From Syntrophales bacterium (GTDB taxonomy: Bacteria; Desulfobacterota; Syntrophia; Syntrophales; UBA2251), in assembly GCA_035358035.1 (NCBI GenBank), contig DAOPOS010000008.1:7724-71723 (forward strand): a DNA stretch of 64,000 nt, given 5' to 3'. Positions 53,240-59,573 of the stretch are shown piece after piece. The first letter of the stretch is position 1. The number at the start of each line of letters is the position of its first letter. A program made the translations under genes and the position numbers. Below the pieces are notes generated by a model. It was not told the DNA's origin, searched no databases, and saw only the letters and a program-made list of their open reading frames with translations.

Positions 53240-53346
53240 TCCTACCCATCCAAAAGAACGCATGAAGGGTTTGAGCTTTTTGTGATACCGGGAATGATCG
53301 GGACAGTGTGAGTCATCGGCGGAGTCCGGCACTGCAGGGTGGATCC

Positions 53347-54426
53347 ATGGTGGATATCGTAGGGTTGTTTACCGGCGCCAAGAAGCTGGTCGGGCTCGAT
53401 GTCGGATCGAGCGCACTCAAGCTTGCCGAAGTCGTCCAGACGCCGAAAGGGTTCGTTCTCAACAACTTTCATCAAACGCCCCTCCCGCGGGGGGTGATCA
53501 CGGACGGCGCCGTCACCGCGCCGGACATTCTAACCCAGCACATCAAAGACCTCTACAAGAAAGCCGGCTGCAAACGCAAGGCCATCGTGACGTCCCTGTC
53601 CAGCCATGCCGCGATCGTGAAGAAGGTCAACCTCGCCCAGATGGAGGAAAACGAGCTTCGCGAACTGATTCACGACGAGGCCGGGAAGTATCTGCCTTTC
53701 GACAGCATGGACGACGTCCTGTTCGATTTTCAGATCCTGGGTGAAAACGAGTATAACCCGAATCAGATGGACGTGCTCATCGTGGCGGCCAAGAAGGACC
53801 TCGTCGAGGGATTCACCGGTGCCATCGAAAAGGCCGGGCTCCCCGTGGTGATCATGGACGTGGATTCCTTCGCCCTGGAACACATGTACGAGCAGAATTA
53901 CGACTTCGAGGAAACGGACGTCGCGGCCCTGATCAACATCGGGGCGAGTATCACCAACATCAACGTCGTCCTGAACGGCGGCTCCATCTTCACGCGGGAT
54001 TTCACCCTGGGCGGCAATGCCGTCACCGAGGCCCTTCAGGAAAAGCTCGGCGTCACCTTCGAAGAGGCGGAGAAGATCAAGCTCGAAGGCGTGCGCGGCG
54101 GCGAGATGGAAGAGCGGGAGTTCAACGACAGCCTGCTTCAGCTTGCCGACCCGATCTGTTCGGAGATCGAGCGGTCCCTCGATTACTTCCGCTCCACTTA
54201 CGGCGGCGGGGACATCCGCAAGGTTCTGCTGTGCGGAGGAAGCGCCAATATCCCCGGTATCGCACAGGAGCTTTCCCAGAGGCTTAACATCGAAACGGAG
54301 GTCGTCAATCCCTTTCAGAAGATCGGTTACAATAAAAAGGTGATCGACCCGGGGCAGATCCAGAGCATCGGCCCCGTGGCCGCGGTCGGAGTGGGACTGG
54401 CGCTCCGGAGGGTGGGTGAGAAATGA
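53347..54426 (+). CDS. pilM: Type IV pilus assembly protein PilM
   Basis: VGLDVGSSALK, EAGKYLPF, INIGASITN, EIERSLDYF, LCGGSA, VAAVGVGLALR. Confidence 0.93.
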   Translation: MVDIVGLFTGAKKLVGLDVGSSALKLAEVVQTPKGFVLNNFHQTPLPRGVITDGAVTAPDILTQHIKDLYKKAGCKRKAIVTSLSSHAAIVKKVNLAQMEENELRELIHDEAGKYLPFDSMDDVLFDFQILGENEYNPNQMDVLIVAAKKDLVEGFTGAIEKAGLPVVIMDVDSFALEHMYEQNYDFEETDVAALINIGASITNINVVLNGGSIFTRDFTLGGNAVTEALQEKLGVTFEEAEKIKLEGVRGGEMEEREFNDSLLQLADPICSEIERSLDYFRSTYGGGDIRKVLLCGGSANIPGIAQELSQRLNIETEVVNPFQKIGYNKKVIDPGQIQSIGPVAAVGVGLALRRVGEK

Positions 54427-54971
54427 TCAAGATCAATCTTCTTCCCTACCGGGAAAAAGCCGCGAAGGCCGGCATGGCGCGGCAGATCATCCTGACCGCC
54501 GGAATCTTGATCTTCCTCGTTCTGATCCTGGCCGGCACGCAGATCTATCTGTCCGCGAACAATGCGCGGATGGAAGGCGAGATCAAGGCCGCCGAAGAAA
54601 AACTCGTCGTCCTGGACAAGAAGGTCGGCGACGTGGAGAAGTTCAAGGAGAACAAGCGGGTCCTGGAGCGGAAGCTCTCCGTCATCAATGGCCTGGAGGA
54701 GAACCGCCTTGCGCCGGTCAAGATGCTGGATGAGCTCGTCCGCCTTGTGCCCACCCGCGATGTCTGGCTCGACAAGTTCACCCAGAAAGGCGCGGACCTC
54801 CAGATCGAGGGCGTGGCCCGCGACAATGCAGCCGTCTCGCGTCTCATGTGGAGTCTCGAACGCGCCAGCTTCATCAATGGCGTGGAGCTCGTCTCCACCA
54901 AGGAGAAGGAAGTCTCGAAAGTCAAGTTGCAGCAATTCATCCTGAACTGTCGTATGAAAAAGGGCGCCTGA
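54423..54971 (+). CDS. pilN: Type IV pilus assembly protein PilN
   Basis: Conserved INLLP N-terminus, TM helix, coiled coil, VWL...IEGVA. Confidence 0.92.
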   Translation: MIKINLLPYREKAAKAGMARQIILTAGILIFLVLILAGTQIYLSANNARMEGEIKAAEEKLVVLDKKVGDVEKFKENKRVLERKLSVINGLEENRLAPVKMLDELVRLVPTRDVWLDKFTQKGADLQIEGVARDNAAVSRLMWSLERASFINGVELVSTKEKEVSKVKLQQFILNCRMKKGA

Positions 54972-54973
54972 CC

Positions 54974-55693
54974 ATGCCGATCACCGTGGAAGACATCAAG
55001 AAGCTCCCCCCCAGGATCCAGGCCCTGATCCTTCTGGGCGTGGTGCTTCTCCTGGGCTACTTCTATTACTTCTTCTTCCTCCAGGCGACGCTGGAAAAGC
55101 GGGGACAGCTGCAGACCAAGCTCGCCGAACTGGAGCAGCAGGTGGCGGAGAAGGAGCGGGTCGCCGCCCAGCTTGGCAAGTACATGCGGGAGGTCGAGAC
55201 CCTGGAACAGCAGTTCAAACTGGCGCTGTCCAAGCTCCCCGACAAGAAGGAAATTCCCGGCCTGCTCAATTCCGTTGCCCTGGCCGGCAAGGGCGCGGGT
55301 GTCCGGTTTCTGCTTTTTGCGCCGAAGCCGCCCGCCAAGCCGGCCGAAAAGCCGGGGGTCAAGGACAATCTGAAGCCCTCCGACAAACGGGCGGAAGAGA
55401 AGGAAAAGGGCGACGGCGGTGCGGCCCCGTCGTCCAAGGCGGGAGGAGAGGCCTTCTATGACGAAATCCCCGTCGATGTTCAGATCGCGGGCGGTTACCA
55501 CAATATCGCCCTTTTCTTCGAGCGCGTGGCGATGCTTCCCCGGATCGTCAATATCGAAGACATCGTCATGGGGGATGCGACCGACGTCAAGGGACGGGGC
55601 CGCCTCCTGAAGACATCCTGCGTGATCAAGACATACATGTTTGTCGAGAGGCCTGATGCTGCAGTCAAAAAGACGGATCAAAAAGGCAAGTAA
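54974..55693 (+). CDS. pilO: Type IV pilus assembly protein PilO
   Basis: TM helix, LPDKKEIPGLL, FYDEIPV...GGYHNIALFF...LPRIVNI; carries a K/E/P-rich insertion. Confidence 0.92.
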   Translation: MPITVEDIKKLPPRIQALILLGVVLLLGYFYYFFFLQATLEKRGQLQTKLAELEQQVAEKERVAAQLGKYMREVETLEQQFKLALSKLPDKKEIPGLLNSVALAGKGAGVRFLLFAPKPPAKPAEKPGVKDNLKPSDKRAEEKEKGDGGAAPSSKAGGEAFYDEIPVDVQIAGGYHNIALFFERVAMLPRIVNIEDIVMGDATDVKGRGRLLKTSCVIKTYMFVERPDAAVKKTDQKGK

Positions 55694-56213
55694 TCCCGTC
55701 ACGGTGATCGGGATCGGCCTGATGTTCTGCGGGCTCTGTCTGGGCGCCGGCCCCGCTGCGGCCGCCGATCCGGTCAAGCCCCGACCGGCCGTTCCTGTCC
55801 CGGTCGTGACGCCCAAGGCCGTAAAGGCGCCGGCGGTTCATTACCGCTACAGTCCGGCCGGCAAGGCGGATCCGTTCCGTCCCTTCATCGAGCGGGATGA
55901 GATCGCCCGCAAGAAGGCGTTCAAGCCCAAGCCCGTTCCTTTATCGCCGCTCCAGCGTGCCGGAATCGAACAGTTCAGGCTCGTCGGGGTCGCGGGCAGC
56001 GTCGAACGGCGCATCGCGGTTGTCGAGGACGCCGCGGGCAAGTTCTATACCGTCAAGCCGGGGACCGTCATCGGTCAGAGCGGCGGCCGGGTCGCCGAGA
56101 TCCATGAAGACCGGGTCATCATCGAGCAGCGATCGGTGGATCAGAAAAAACAGACCAAAGTCAACCGCGTGGTCATCCAGCTTCGCAAAGACGAATACGA
56201 GGGAAGATTATGA
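55656..56213 (+). CDS. pilP: Type IV pilus assembly protein PilP
   Basis: GKADPFRPF, SPLQ...FRLVGV, VEDAAGKFYTVKPGTVIG; position between pilO and pilQ. Start uncertain. Confidence 0.85.
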   Translation: MLQSKRRIKKASNPVTVIGIGLMFCGLCLGAGPAAAADPVKPRPAVPVPVVTPKAVKAPAVHYRYSPAGKADPFRPFIERDEIARKKAFKPKPVPLSPLQRAGIEQFRLVGVAGSVERRIAVVEDAAGKFYTVKPGTVIGQSGGRVAEIHEDRVIIEQRSVDQKKQTKVNRVVIQLRKDEYEGRL

Positions 56214-57940
56214 AACCAAAAAGGCCATGGCTATGGACCGCCTTGCTGGCGGCGTCTCTGCTTTTGGCCGGGGCGGTGTCCGTCGCCCTTGCCCAGCCGG
56301 AGGTTTCCGTCGGCTACGTGGAGGAGATTACCGCCGGTCCGCTGCCGGGGAAGGAGCGCGTCACCGTGGTCCTGTCCCGGATCACGGCGCCGACGGTCGA
56401 GGCCGCGCCGGGCGGCGGTGTGCTGATCAAGGTGCCGGACATGTTCATCCCCGAGGGGTTGCGAAATCCGCTAGGCGAGGGCGCCCTGAGCAACATCCTT
56501 CGCATCGTTCCGGAGCAGCGGACGGAGGGGGGGCGTCAGTGGGCGTATGTCCGCGTCGATCTGAAACAGCCGGTTGCTTACGGCGTTCGTCAGGAAGGGC
56601 CCTCGGTCGTCGTGGACTTCAATGTCGCGGGTTTGAATCCGCCTTCCCCGGCGCCGGAACGGGCGTCCGCGCCTGCACCGGCAGCGGCCCCCGCCGTGTC
56701 GCCTGTCCCGCTTGCGAAGGAAGCACCGTTGGCCGCGGCCAAACCCGCCGCCCCGGATACGCTTCAGGGGAGCGATGATAAGGCGTATACCGGCAAGCGG
56801 ATCTCGCTCGACTTCCAGGACGCGAACATCAAAAGTGTCCTGAGGCTGCTGTCGGAAGTGAGCGGCATGAGCCTCGTATCCGGAGATGACGTGAAGGGGA
56901 ATGTCACGGTCCACATGAACAACGTTCCGTGGGACCAAGCCCTCGACGTCATCCTCGATATCAAGGGGCTCACGAAAAAACAGATGGGCGACGTGATCAG
57001 CATCATCACGCTCGAAAGGGCCAAGCAGGACGAGGCCAACCGCCAGGCGGCCCTGGAAAGTCAGAAGAAAGCGGAAGAGGCGAAACAAGCGGGAGAACAA
57101 AAGAAATTACAGGAAAAGGGAAAGATCCGCCAGGTCTTGATCGAGGCGAAGATCGTGGAGGCGGAGGAAGGATTCTCCCGGGATTTGGGAATCCAGTGGG
57201 GCGTTGGGAAAAAGAGCAGCTTCGGGTCGCACTACGATTATGCCGCCGTTGCCCAGGCGACCAATGCCACGATGTCGGACACCGTTGTCGGGCTGGCGGG
57301 TTCTACGGGAACGGCCCTGACGACGGGCAACCTCGCCGTCAACTTCCCCTTGGCTGCGGCCGCCCCCGCCCTGGGTTTCGTGATCAGCGGCAGCCACTGG
57401 ATCCTGGACGCCGAACTGATGGCCCAGGAACAGCAGAATCGGGTGCGGATCATTTCCACGCCCAAGGTCACCACGCTGGAAAAAGTCAAGGCCACCATCA
57501 AACAGGGTGAGGACGTTCCCTTTGTAACCCCGGCGACGACGTCCGATCCCGCGAGCGTGAGCTTCAAGGAAGCCGTCCTGAAGCTCGAGGTCGAACCGAC
57601 CATCACACCGGACGGGAAAATCTCGATGAAGATCAAGGCGACCAACGATTCGCCGAACTACGCCCGGGCCGCGCTCCTGCAAGGGAATCCCCCGATCAAC
57701 AAGAGCGAGGTCGAATCTACCGTTATCGTCAATGACGGGGACACGGCGGTGATCGGAGGCGTTGTCAAGACAACCGAATCGAACAGCGGTGACGGGGTCC
57801 CCTGGATCTCCAGGGTTCCCATCCTGGGATGGCTCTTCAAATATGAGAATAAAGAAACCAACAAACGTGAATTGCTGATTTTCGTGACCCCGAGGATCGT
57901 CAAGGACGATACCCTCACCGCGGCGGTGAAGCCGATGTGA
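56210..57940 (+). CDS. pilQ: Type IV pilus secretin PilQ
   Basis: Signal peptide, AMIN-like region, N0 (RISLDFQDANI...VPWDQAL), secretin core QVLIEAKIVE, PKVTTL, VIGG, VPWISRVPILGWLFK, ELLIFVTPRIV. Confidence 0.93.
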   Translation: MKPKRPWLWTALLAASLLLAGAVSVALAQPEVSVGYVEEITAGPLPGKERVTVVLSRITAPTVEAAPGGGVLIKVPDMFIPEGLRNPLGEGALSNILRIVPEQRTEGGRQWAYVRVDLKQPVAYGVRQEGPSVVVDFNVAGLNPPSPAPERASAPAPAAAPAVSPVPLAKEAPLAAAKPAAPDTLQGSDDKAYTGKRISLDFQDANIKSVLRLLSEVSGMSLVSGDDVKGNVTVHMNNVPWDQALDVILDIKGLTKKQMGDVISIITLERAKQDEANRQAALESQKKAEEAKQAGEQKKLQEKGKIRQVLIEAKIVEAEEGFSRDLGIQWGVGKKSSFGSHYDYAAVAQATNATMSDTVVGLAGSTGTALTTGNLAVNFPLAAAAPALGFVISGSHWILDAELMAQEQQNRVRIISTPKVTTLEKVKATIKQGEDVPFVTPATTSDPASVSFKEAVLKLEVEPTITPDGKISMKIKATNDSPNYARAALLQGNPPINKSEVESTVIVNDGDTAVIGGVVKTTESNSGDGVPWISRVPILGWLFKYENKETNKRELLIFVTPRIVKDDTLTAAVKPM

Positions 57941-58004
57941 GCGATGTGACGCACCGGAGTCATCGATGACGGGGCGTGATGCCGTCATTCGCAAGCCCGC
58001 GAGG

Positions 58005-58038
58005 GAGACCGCCTTCAACAAGGCGGTCTCTTTTTTTT
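58005..58038 (+). terminator. Intrinsic terminator after pilQ
   Basis: GAGACCGCCTT-CAAC-AAGGCGGTCTC perfect 11-bp stem followed by T8. Confidence 0.9.
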
Positions 58039-58045
58039 AGGGGAG

Positions 58046-58561
58046 TCAGTCCCGCTTCAATTCCGGAACGGGATTTTTCTTCGAGGTCAGGATCTCTCGG
58101 AAGCCGTGGGCGCCAGGATCCGGGCAGCGGATCTCCGGATTCGGTCCCGGGGTGATCACGTAGGGCTTGCCGCTCGCCGGACAGACGATGGGTTGACCGA
58201 CACCCGTTCCGCCCTGCTGGAAATCGTGGGCAAGCCTCCAGAGGTTCTTCAGGCACTGATCGGTGGCGGCGTCGGTTGCATAGCTTCCCGTTCGCACCGG
58301 CTTCAGCGTCTTGAAGGCCGTCAGCGTGCGCGGGGTTTGATAGACGACCGTGGCTGCGCAGGCGAGGACGATCAGGCCCATGACGATCTTTCCGCCCGAC
58401 GTATCGCGCCACGGCTTGAATTTGGGCGTCTCGACCGCCGTGTCACGGATATGCGATTCCGCCTGATCGATCAGGCATTGGCGGCAGTAGGCCTTCCCCT
58501 CGCCGGCCATGGGATTGCCGCATCGCTGGCAGAATGTCTCCGGCTTATTCGGGTCGGTCAT
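58046..58561 (-). CDS. Hypothetical membrane protein: zinc ribbon + TM helix + pilin-like Cys/His domain
   Basis: CQRC...CRQC, TM IVMGLIVLACAATVVY, C-terminal CLKN...CPASGKPY...CPDPGAH. Confidence 0.75.
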   Translation of the reverse strand: MTDPNKPETFCQRCGNPMAGEGKAYCRQCLIDQAESHIRDTAVETPKFKPWRDTSGGKIVMGLIVLACAATVVYQTPRTLTAFKTLKPVRTGSYATDAATDQCLKNLWRLAHDFQQGGTGVGQPIVCPASGKPYVITPGPNPEIRCPDPGAHGFREILTSKKNPVPELKRD

Positions 58562-58574
58562 TCCCCTGTCCTTT

Positions 58575-59450
58575 TCACTTCTGCACGACGCTCAGGTTGT
58601 CGAAATTCACCGCCGCCTGGCCCCAGGTCCGGAACCCTCCGGAACCGGATGAAAAGCTGCCGTCCTTGAAATCCAGAACGGTTTCTCCATCGACCTTGAT
58701 GGTCGTGCGATCACCCGCCACGGCGATGCCGATGTCGTGAGACTGGTTGTAGATGCTGAATCCCGCCGGCATGGAAACGGATTGGAAGGGGGACTGCTCG
58801 GCGCCGCTGACGACCTTGCGGACCACGAACCGGTTACCCAGGCCGGGATCGTACTGAAACACATAGCCGGTGATGTTCGGGTTCGCGTCCGCGCGATAAT
58901 AGATGCCGTAGCCCTGCCCCTGGGTCAGGACGGCGCTGACCTTGATCTCGTAATCCGTCCAGGCCTGATCGCCGAAGGCGATGCGGTTCTCCTGGCCGGG
59001 TTTGTTGTTCAGGGTGCCGTGACCGACGTTCCAGTTCCCCATGAGCTTCTTGAAGCCGCTCTGATCGTTGAAGAGACTGGCGAAGAGGATTTTTGCCGTT
59101 TCCGCGACCGGGACCGTGCCGTAATGGAGGGAGCAACCGAGGATCGGAGCCGGTGTCCGCTGTATCCAGACGTAGGTTCCGCCGCTGGGGCAGACGGGTT
59201 CCTCGTGTATGAGGCCGGAGCCGACGAGATCGGCGAAGCCGGCGCTCGGTGTATTCTTCTCGATCAGGTAGGTCACTTCCGCCTTTTCCGTGTAGTAGCG
59301 GTTGCCCAGGCAGGCGGCGGCGCGCGCCCGCTCCACATACGCCACCATCAACGGGACGGCGATCGACGTCAGGACCAGGATGAGCCCGATGACCACGAGC
59401 AGTTCGATGAGTGTGAAGCCGCGGGAATCCCTCTCGATCCTTTTTTGCAC
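58575..59450 (-). CDS. Type IV pilin-like protein (class III signal peptide) fused to a DUF1080/concanavalin-like beta-sandwich
   Basis: SRG|FTLIELLVVIG with Glu at +5; CLGN...CPSGGTY...CSLH; C-terminal WTDYEIKV, GYGIYYR, GYVFQY, IKVDGETVLDFKD, GGFRTWG...FDNLSV. GTG 59450 follows GAGAGG. Confidence 0.85.
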   Translation of the reverse strand: MQKRIERDSRGFTLIELLVVIGLILVLTSIAVPLMVAYVERARAAACLGNRYYTEKAEVTYLIEKNTPSAGFADLVGSGLIHEEPVCPSGGTYVWIQRTPAPILGCSLHYGTVPVAETAKILFASLFNDQSGFKKLMGNWNVGHGTLNNKPGQENRIAFGDQAWTDYEIKVSAVLTQGQGYGIYYRADANPNITGYVFQYDPGLGNRFVVRKVVSGAEQSPFQSVSMPAGFSIYNQSHDIGIAVAGDRTTIKVDGETVLDFKDGSFSSGSGGFRTWGQAAVNFDNLSVVQK

Positions 59451-59544: not shown

Positions 59545-59573
59545 AGTATACGGCGCTCCCGGGGGGGTGTCAA
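59545..59573 (-). promoter_or_regulatory. sigma70 promoter of the pilin-like pair
   Basis: Minus strand TTGACA (59573-59568), 17 nt, TATACT (59550-59545). Confidence 0.82.

Follow-up and report, generated by a model that had tools for sequence, protein, structure and literature searches.

A pair of adjacent genes on the minus strand of a 64,000-nucleotide stretch of contig DAOPOS010000008.1 (GenBank assembly GCA_035358035.1, from a Syntrophales bacterium), referred to here as the window, encodes a putative lectin-bearing type IV prepilin (gene 1) and a small, putatively bitopic membrane protein (gene 2). Both proteins carry a motif of three cysteines and one histidine, termed Cys3His below. 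The pair recurs across phyla and is linked to a locus encoding a histidine phosphotransfer (Hpt) protein and a PilB-type ATPase with receiver domains. We give about even chances to the reading that it represents a conserved cassette of a signal-controlled type IV pilus (T4P) module, in which gene 2 would serve as an adaptor or regulator linking the lectin pilin to a phosphorelay-gated motor. Gene 1 itself is of a known kind; the new elements are gene 2 and the wiring to the phosphorelay-gated ATPase. All sequence features that an initial annotation of this DNA had described for the two genes are present, and they are arranged in the window as follows.

59418 to 59450, minus strand: gene 1 class III leader, residues 1-11 with Gly-1 as the last residue, followed by the mature N-terminus FTLIE (from the sequence, PF07963 and TIGR02532)
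59115 to 59417, minus strand: gene 1 short pilin moiety, residues 12-112, with alpha1 helix, beta-hairpin, C47, C87, C106 and H109 (from the model and family conservation)
58578 to 59090, minus strand: gene 1 C-terminal CBM66/DUF1080 (PF06439) beta-sandwich module, residues 121-291 (from Pfam, Foldseek and sequence profile)
58575 to 59450, minus strand: gene 1 as a whole, putative modular type IV prepilin of 291 amino acids, GTG start, stop codon included
58475 to 58531, minus strand: gene 2 zinc-ribbon-like segment CxxC-x11-CxxC, predicted to be cytoplasmic, residues 11-29 (four cysteines invariant in the close family)
58334 to 58396, minus strand: gene 2 transmembrane helix, residues ~56-76, without a prepilin cleavage motif before it (helix 55-84 in the model)
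58049 to 58300, minus strand: gene 2 predicted periplasmic domain, residues 88-171, with C103, C127, C146, H152 and a conserved C-terminal PVPE (from the family alignment)
58046 to 58561, minus strand: gene 2 as a whole, putative bitopic membrane partner protein of 171 amino acids, stop codon included

The association of the two genes is tight and extends across phyla, which bears out their initial description as one module. Of 201 genomes sampled from the same order, 14 carry gene 2. The gene 1 family (E ≤ 1e-20) was detected in 12 of these and in no genome without gene 2. In the remaining gene 2-positive genomes, gene 2 is located at a contig end (G186) or has a GspH-like pilin adjacent to it (G037). 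Among 20 loci taken from named genome records, a motif-bearing pilin directly adjoins gene 2 on the same strand in 17, and the other three are contig ends or short contigs. These paired loci originate from Syntrophales, Syntrophobacterales, Desulfobacteraceae, Desulfonema, other Thermodesulfobacteriota, Acidobacteriota, Syntrophorhabdaceae, Elusimicrobium and an unclassified bacterium. In loci of the Syntrophales type the pilin precedes gene 2; elsewhere gene 2 comes first, often with overlapping stop and start codons.

The two families differ in size. Relatives of gene 1 with the same architecture number in the hundreds, in at least 244 clusters, and are labelled as Syntrophales, Syntrophus, Syntrophorhabdus, Thermodesulfobacteriota and, in one case, as a Bacillota metagenome-assembled genome (MAG). 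The close relatives of gene 2 form 16 clusters. A profile search of 1.84 billion representatives retrieved 261 proteins of the gene 2 family at E ≤ 0.001, counted after clustering at 50 % identity, of which 173 reach E ≤ 1e-10. A phylum-level sample of 401 genomes contained gene 2 in 17, clustered in a small number of families. Outside the Syntrophales, the module is present in MAGs of Acidobacteriota, Elusimicrobium and Desulfobacteraceae. Judged by its sequence, the gene 2 family matches no known family and is undescribed. No publication on the partner family, Cys3His pilins or Hpt-linked receiver-domain PilB ATPases that have a pilin of their own came up in literature searches.

The second line of evidence is the conserved position of the pair beside genes of a phosphorelay. 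In relatives, the locus has the order Hpt, ATPase, pilin, gene 2 and truA, and the ATPase combines MshEN, T2SSE and receiver domains. In other phyla, a gene for a hybrid histidine kinase (PAS or dCache, HisKA, HATPase_c and two or three receiver domains) is located upstream of the Hpt gene. An orthologue of the ATPase (E ≤ 1e-240) is present in 12 of the 14 gene 2-positive genomes of the order sample, compared to 5 of the 187 gene 2-negative ones, and the two gene 2-positive genomes that lack it are 78 % and 84 % complete. The loci of relatives thereby rule out pilMNOPQ as a conserved neighbour of the pair. The initial annotation had described the pair as facing pilMNOPQ, which is true in this genome but peculiar to it, since the conserved partner is the locus of Hpt and receiver-domain ATPase.

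Some relatives of gene 2 have an N-terminal Hpt-like domain of the same subfamily as the stand-alone Hpt proteins. In all five of these fused domains, the histidine of the H-x-x-K-G motif has given way to L, N, N, K or T, and with the phospho-accepting residue gone they do not qualify as true Hpt domains. The stand-alone Hpt proteins of the same loci have kept this histidine in four of four cases. In one further record, gene 2 is fused to a product containing a receiver (REC) domain. The pseudo-Hpt fusions place the N-terminus of gene 2 in the cytoplasm, next to the receiver domains, and the Hpt and REC fusions together imply an N-in topology. The pseudo-Hpt domain may be a receiver-docking module. 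The initial suggestion that gene 2 could sense or regulate assembly, or more broadly a regulatory or assembly role, fits both its fixed place beside the receiver-domain PilB-type ATPase and Hpt and the pseudo-Hpt fusions. Both the fused and the stand-alone Hpt forms are carried together by the Syntrophorhabdaceae-type loci. As a side observation, two MAGs of this type (L058:7551-8474 and L061:7437-8279) encode the fusion of gene 2 and pseudo-Hpt with a normal Hpt gene two genes downstream.

For gene 1, several signatures point to a modular pilin. The charged leader VQKRIERDSRG of 11 residues is followed by FTLIELLVV, and the cleavage site is read between DSRG and FTLIELLVVIGLILVLTSIAVP. This is the class III signal of type IV pilins, which the initial annotation had recognized and which PF07963 (29.8 bits, cut-off 21.2) and TIGR02532 (25.8 bits, cut-off 16.3) both detect above their cut-offs. 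The motif is formed by CLGN (C47), CPSGGTY (C87) and CSLH (C106 and H109). An AlphaFold2 (AF2) model built from 107 relatives has a mean predicted local distance difference test score (pLDDT) of 91. It shows the organization of a modular pilin, with a head (14-106), a linker of low pLDDT (113-117) and a beta-sandwich (121-290). The head consists of a long alpha1 helix (14-65) that contains C47, a short helix and a two-strand hairpin (93-97 and 103-106), with C87 and C106 on the flanks of the hairpin and H109 just beyond it.

The beta-sandwich, initially described as lectin-like, belongs to the PF06439/CBM66 fold. It scores 39 bits against PF06439 (DUF1080, 3-keto-disaccharide hydrolase; cut-off 26.8), and its top Foldseek match is the CBM66 of the Bacillus subtilis levanase (4b1m/4azz) with an E-value of 4.7e-12, a TM score of 0.85 and a root-mean-square deviation of 2.1 Å. 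The family profile of gene 1 also retrieves the levanase module by sequence (E 6.5e-10). Taken together, sequence and model make it reasonably credible, at about even odds, that gene 1 is a modular minor pilin with a cleavable class III leader, a minimal head, a flexible linker and a CBM66-type carbohydrate-binding module. Membership in the ComGC competence pilins (NF040999) was considered and rejected, since gene 1 reaches 26.2 bits against a cut-off of 75. Among relatives, the C-terminal module varies between DUF1080, LamG-like and proline-rich forms or is missing, and the Cys3His head is constant.

Two side observations concern this variation. In two loci (L013:479-1543 in G141:C19, and L055:8456-10223), two Cys3His-head pilins with different C-terminal modules are located around or after gene 2, and one of these two-pilin loci pairs a DUF1080 with a LamG-like module. 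Such loci suggest interchangeable adhesin heads on one scaffold. In another locus (L048:7124-7990), a paralogous DUF1080 pilin lies by a second copy of gene 2. It has lost the Gly-1/Phe+1 motif and kept the Cys3His head, and its sequence indicates that it may be an uncleaved, membrane-retained variant.

Gene 2 has a different architecture. Its motif comprises CLKN (C103), CPASGKPY (C127) and CPDPGAH (C146 and H152), and about 55 residues precede its transmembrane helix, among them the cysteines C11xxC14 and C26xxC29. The prepilin motif G[FYWML]xxxE is absent from gene 2 and from all 148 family representatives that were read, so the class III signal of type IV pilins is missing and gene 2 was rejected as a type IV pilin. 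The AF2 model, with a mean pLDDT of 76, has a membrane-spanning helix (55-84) and a C-terminal domain with a single helix (98-115) that holds C103 and is followed by short strands. Given this sequence pattern, we lean with middling confidence towards an inner-membrane protein of N-in/C-out bitopic topology that is not a pilin.

Searches with individual parts of gene 2 gave few leads. Every Pfam ribbon match of the zinc-ribbon segment is below its cut-off, with DZR_2 as the best (16.3 versus 27). A scan of all 138 family members found no Pfam model for the periplasmic domain, only zinc-ribbon families below threshold. By sequence profile, the PDB contains no relative of the periplasmic domain and only weak matches to the ribbon region. 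In a Foldseek search of the model against the PDB, nothing was found at E < 2 and the best match had an E-value of 2.4. The weak matches include several pilins, for example TTHA1221 (TMt 0.49). A membrane anti-sigma factor of the ZAS type was also considered and rejected, since the sequence contains no HxxxCxxC motif. The gene tables and Pfam scans of the loci examined contain no sigma factor gene. The CxxC-CxxC segment initially described as a zinc ribbon and the transmembrane helix initially described as uncleaved are present in this protein without a prepilin motif, but the ribbon-like segment is not a constant feature of the family, as it is absent in about one third of relatives.

The motif common to both genes is highly specific. 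A relaxed regular expression matches only 2 of 21,153 open reading frames (ORFs), namely gene 1 and gene 2, in a scan of all six frames of the whole genome (2.75 Mb, 63.9 % G+C) for ORFs of at least 60 amino acids. The other pilin-like ORFs of the genome, located on contigs C3, C5 and C15, contain zero or one cysteine each, a count that leaves out one further N_methyl match on contig C7 not caught by this ORF scan. With so few cysteines, the canonical pilin-like proteins of this organism lack the usual disulfide-bonded C-terminal loop. Within the families, the complete set of three cysteines and histidine (CCCH) is found in 77 of 107 members for gene 1 and in 119 of 138 for gene 2, in agreement with the initial claim of a shared motif. 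In the gene 1 family, the set is either present or missing as a whole, and the other 30 members lack it. The gene 2 family is more graded. Here, Cys2 is replaced by Glu or Asp in 8 members that keep the remaining three residues, Cys3 is replaced by Asp in 2 members that keep the histidine, and Cys3 and the histidine are jointly lost in 8 members that keep Cys1 and Cys2.

Replacement of cysteine by acidic residues and the coupled loss of cysteine and histidine fit metal binding, and a metal site is for this reason favoured over a disulfide between Cys1 and Cys2. The initial annotation had suggested that the Cys3His set may bind metal, and the substitutions do behave like those of a metal site. 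On these sequence patterns, the set is probably a site of the Zn(Cys3His) type. An apparent lack of Dsb machinery had also been considered as an argument for metal binding and was dropped, because the genome does encode a weak DsbA/VKOR pair.

The relationship between the two Cys3His domains is less clear. Direct comparison by BLASTP gave an E-value of 0.13 over 21 residues, and pairwise homology is therefore not demonstrable. When the periplasmic domain of gene 2 and the head of gene 1 were compared with hhalign, C, C, C and H were in register in one run (P 0.011), and other runs aligned the core of CPxxG, hairpin and cysteine (P 0.0008-0.003), with probabilities of 4-24 % across the comparisons. 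A control with a reversed profile gave P 0.23. These profile alignments suggest, at the level of sequence, a common ancestry or a common fold of both domains. The notion of gene 2 as a true pilin mimic has little support. It is backed by a profile match of 26 columns (P about 0.0014-0.003, probability 10-18 %), but the Foldseek matches to pilins are not significant.

In the mechanism that we favour, the head of the pilin would be held by its Cys3His site, most likely through Zn2+, and the CBM66-type module would be displayed on the pilus, probably at the tip because of its bulk. The periplasmic domain of gene 2 would bind the membrane-embedded pilin. Its cytoplasmic end, which is a zinc ribbon or, in some lineages, a pseudo-Hpt domain without the histidine, would dock onto the relay of Hpt and receiver-domain PilB-type ATPase, which in this genome is encoded at a locus separate from the pair. 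Incorporation of the lectin pilin would thereby be coupled to the phosphorelay, with gene 2 as an assembly-priming adaptor or a feedback regulator. This scheme builds on what was observed, namely the anatomy, conservation and adjacency of the pair and its link to the ATPase/Hpt locus. That a metal is bound, that the proteins touch and which way control runs are the parts that we infer.

A more far-reaching interpretation, which we put forward tentatively and hold to be possible rather than probable, is that the gene 2 family represents a new class of T4P accessory proteins. These would be non-pilin, bitopic look-alikes of a pilin head with a periplasmic Zn(Cys3His) domain, which would be specific partners of modular pilins with Zn(Cys3His) heads and would tether these to a PilB-type ATPase of their own that is gated by a phosphorelay. 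When the lectin-tipped pilus is built would then be up to a sensory kinase. The pilins would also be the first with heads stabilised by a metal rather than by disulfides, a property suited to anaerobes.

Several observations weigh against the adaptor mechanism. One or two zinc ribbons are found in about two thirds of the gene 2 representatives that were read, and the remaining third has no ribbon and a charged N-terminus instead. The pilin beside gene 2 in G037 does not carry the motif. Conversely, one Cys3His pilin (L072) has no gene 2 within 6 kb, which rules out the idea that every Cys3His pilin neighbours gene 2 and indicates a one-sided dependence, in that the pilin does not strictly need gene 2. 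Two further pilins without the motif likewise have no gene 2 nearby. Profile comparison finds the two Cys3His domains only weakly alike and Foldseek finds no significant match, and the likeness could be due to convergence on a small metal knuckle. Finally, the genome of the window itself contains two adjacent weak matches, one to DsbA (26.8 bits) and one to VKOR (28.7 bits), at C2:205292-205812. Going by these matches, they may represent a periplasmic disulfide-forming pair in a strict anaerobe, and a disulfide between Cys1 and Cys2 retains a small probability.

Among the alternatives, a purely structural role of gene 2 survives best, although we regard it as rather unlikely. Gene 2 would then be only a stabiliser or chaperone of the short pilin moiety at the periplasmic face, without any signalling, and the ribbon would do no more than anchor the protein or help it fold. 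The tight adjacency and translational coupling of gene 2 and the pilin would be expected in this case, the head of gene 1 is short and has only two strands, and about one third of the gene 2 family does without the ribbon. There is also a precedent for partner-dependent stability in a lectin-bearing modular pilin (PMC9934059). The fixed position of gene 2 beside the REC-ATPase and Hpt across phyla speaks against such a role, and the pseudo-Hpt fusions together with the REC-containing fusion record point to a cytoplasmic partner.

In a second alternative, gene 2 would monitor the pilin pool in the membrane and feed back on the relay instead of acting as an assembly adaptor. The combination of a periplasmic domain, a transmembrane helix and a cytoplasmic domain would suit a sensor, the pseudo-Hpt fusions could compete with true Hpt for the receiver domains, and hybrid kinase, Hpt and REC-ATPase share one locus. 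But kinase, phosphatase and DNA-binding domains are all missing from gene 2, and no transcription factor was seen in the module. We consider this reading unlikely, with the reservation that sequence data alone do not separate a sensor from an adaptor.

In a further alternative, the cysteines would form disulfides, with Cys1 and Cys2 paired as in Bacillus ComGC, and gene 1 would resemble gene 2 by coincidence, both having small cysteine-rich domains. The head of gene 1 does give a weak alignment to the ComGC model, spanning profile positions 2-81 of 84, and the genome has the weak DsbA/VKOR pair. Yet the ComGC score is 26 bits compared to a cut-off of 75, and the other pilin-like ORFs of the genome have zero or one cysteine. 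Moreover, a disulfide would not be expected to involve three cysteines with a co-varying histidine, to tolerate Glu or Asp in place of Cys2 with Cys1 kept (8 cases), or to tolerate Asp in place of Cys3 with the histidine kept (2 cases). This explanation is therefore judged improbable. Least of all, gene 2 could be a membrane-tethered metallochaperone that loads the Cys3His site of the pilin in the periplasm, in the way that copper chaperones have fold and motif in common with their targets; despite the same four ligands at similar spacing in both proteins and the confinement of acidic substitutions at ligand positions to the gene 2 family, this appears very improbable, because Cys3His sites are typically tight structural rather than transfer sites, the link to Hpt and the REC-ATPase would be left unexplained, and a motif-bearing pilin exists without gene 2.

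PilS and PilA of Pseudomonas aeruginosa share with this reading the idea that a membrane protein reads out unassembled pilin and regulates the pilus system. Kilmury and Burrows reportedly described in 2016 that PilS senses PilA in Pseudomonas. PilS of P. aeruginosa is a polytopic histidine kinase that acts on transcription, whereas gene 2 is a bitopic protein of 171 amino acids without a catalytic domain. The ATPase of the module resembles the extension ATPases of the MshE/PilB type in its MshEN and T2SSE domains. It differs from them in having one or two receiver domains, in being preceded by an Hpt gene and, in other phyla, also by a hybrid kinase, and in that its locus contributes no platform, secretin or alignment genes.

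Among characterised systems, the pilin PilC of Streptococcus sanguinis and its partner PilA come closest. PilC, a modular pilin, combines a pilin moiety that is short and unstable with a ConA-like lectin module and is stabilised by the neighbouring small pilin PilA (PMC9934059). Gene 1 shares with PilC the class III signal, the unusually short pilin moiety and a C-terminal module from the superfamily of concanavalin-A-like lectins/glucanases. PilC also relies on a small partner encoded nearby for the stability of its pilin moiety and is expected at the pilus tip (PMC9934059). Unlike PilA, gene 2 has no class III signal but a putative cytoplasmic ribbon and an uncleaved transmembrane helix, and is thus not of the pilin type. 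Unlike PilC, gene 1 has a Cys3His motif in its head and a module of the CBM66/DUF1080 type without an Ig-like spacer. The host also differs, being a diderm anaerobe, and the module is tied to a phosphorelay-controlled ATPase.

Two further comparisons concern gene 1 alone. Its module has the same fold as the CBM66 of the B. subtilis levanase SacC (4azz, 4b1l and 4b1m) at 20 % identity, a likeness by fold and profile only, and is grafted on a pilin and not on a glycoside hydrolase. With ComGC-type pilins (NF040999), gene 1 shares a small head with a cysteine in alpha1 followed by a CPxG hairpin. In contrast to ComGC, it has an extra cysteine, a histidine and a lectin module, and no competence genes are located around it.

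To date, work on modular pilins with a lectin module has come from one Gram-positive pathogen. The present data add a large family of putative lectin pilins in anaerobic diderms, built on a common Cys3His mini-head. They also add an obligate-looking partner, the gene 2 family, whose predicted fold has no known match and for which there is no Pfam family, and a conserved wiring of hybrid kinase, Hpt, receiver-domain PilB ATPase, partner and pilin. If the adaptor model is true, it would be an example of a cell that chooses, on a signal, which pilin is loaded onto a shared pilus machine, and it would also show that pilin heads can be stabilised without disulfides. A link to partner attachment in syntrophy, initially raised as a point of interest, is possible but speculative, and the module is also present in Acidobacteriota, Elusimicrobium and Desulfobacteraceae MAGs.

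In the genome of the window, the pair is separated from its usual neighbours. A locus on contig C19 (C19:32470-35326, corresponding to L071:6471-9327) contains an Hpt gene, whose product has kept the histidine, and the gene for an ATPase of 846 amino acids with the domain order REC-MshEN-T2SSE-REC. The gene truA follows 44 bp after the ATPase gene, with Fe-ADH and AFOR genes behind it. This is the synteny of the relatives minus the pair of pilin and gene 2, which sits behind pilQ on another contig. Since C19 keeps this synteny without the pair, both genes have been relocated together to their place after pilQ. The surroundings of the pair in the window comprise three further features.

59545 to 59573, minus strand: promoter-like site TTGACA-17 nt-TATACT upstream of gene 1 (11 of 12 matches)
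53308 to 57940, plus strand: operon of pilM, pilN, pilO, pilP and pilQ, converging on the pair and not a conserved neighbour of it (Pfam)
58003 to 58038, plus strand: pilQ terminator, a hairpin with a 9-bp stem and an 8-nt loop followed by T8 (read directly from the sequence)

The gap of 13 bp between gene 1 and gene 2 and the near-consensus promoter-like site, both part of the initial annotation, were found again. In the region, one promoter-like site was found compared to 0.6 expected in shuffled sequences. The two genes had also been described as converging on a pil terminator. A hairpin is indeed located between pilQ and gene 2, 8 nt past the stop codon of gene 2 and on the opposite strand, and it is not listed by a consensus terminator scan. 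As its T-run is on the pilQ strand only, the terminator belongs to pilQ and is not clearly shared with gene 2.

The genome has four PilB/GspE-like ATPases (on contigs C19, C15, C5 and C2) and three T2SSF platform proteins (on C15, C34 and C5), which means that at least one ATPase must share a platform. No platform gene is located beside the receiver-domain ATPase on C19. The genome contains one prepilin peptidase gene (Peptidase_A24), which is located on contig C3.

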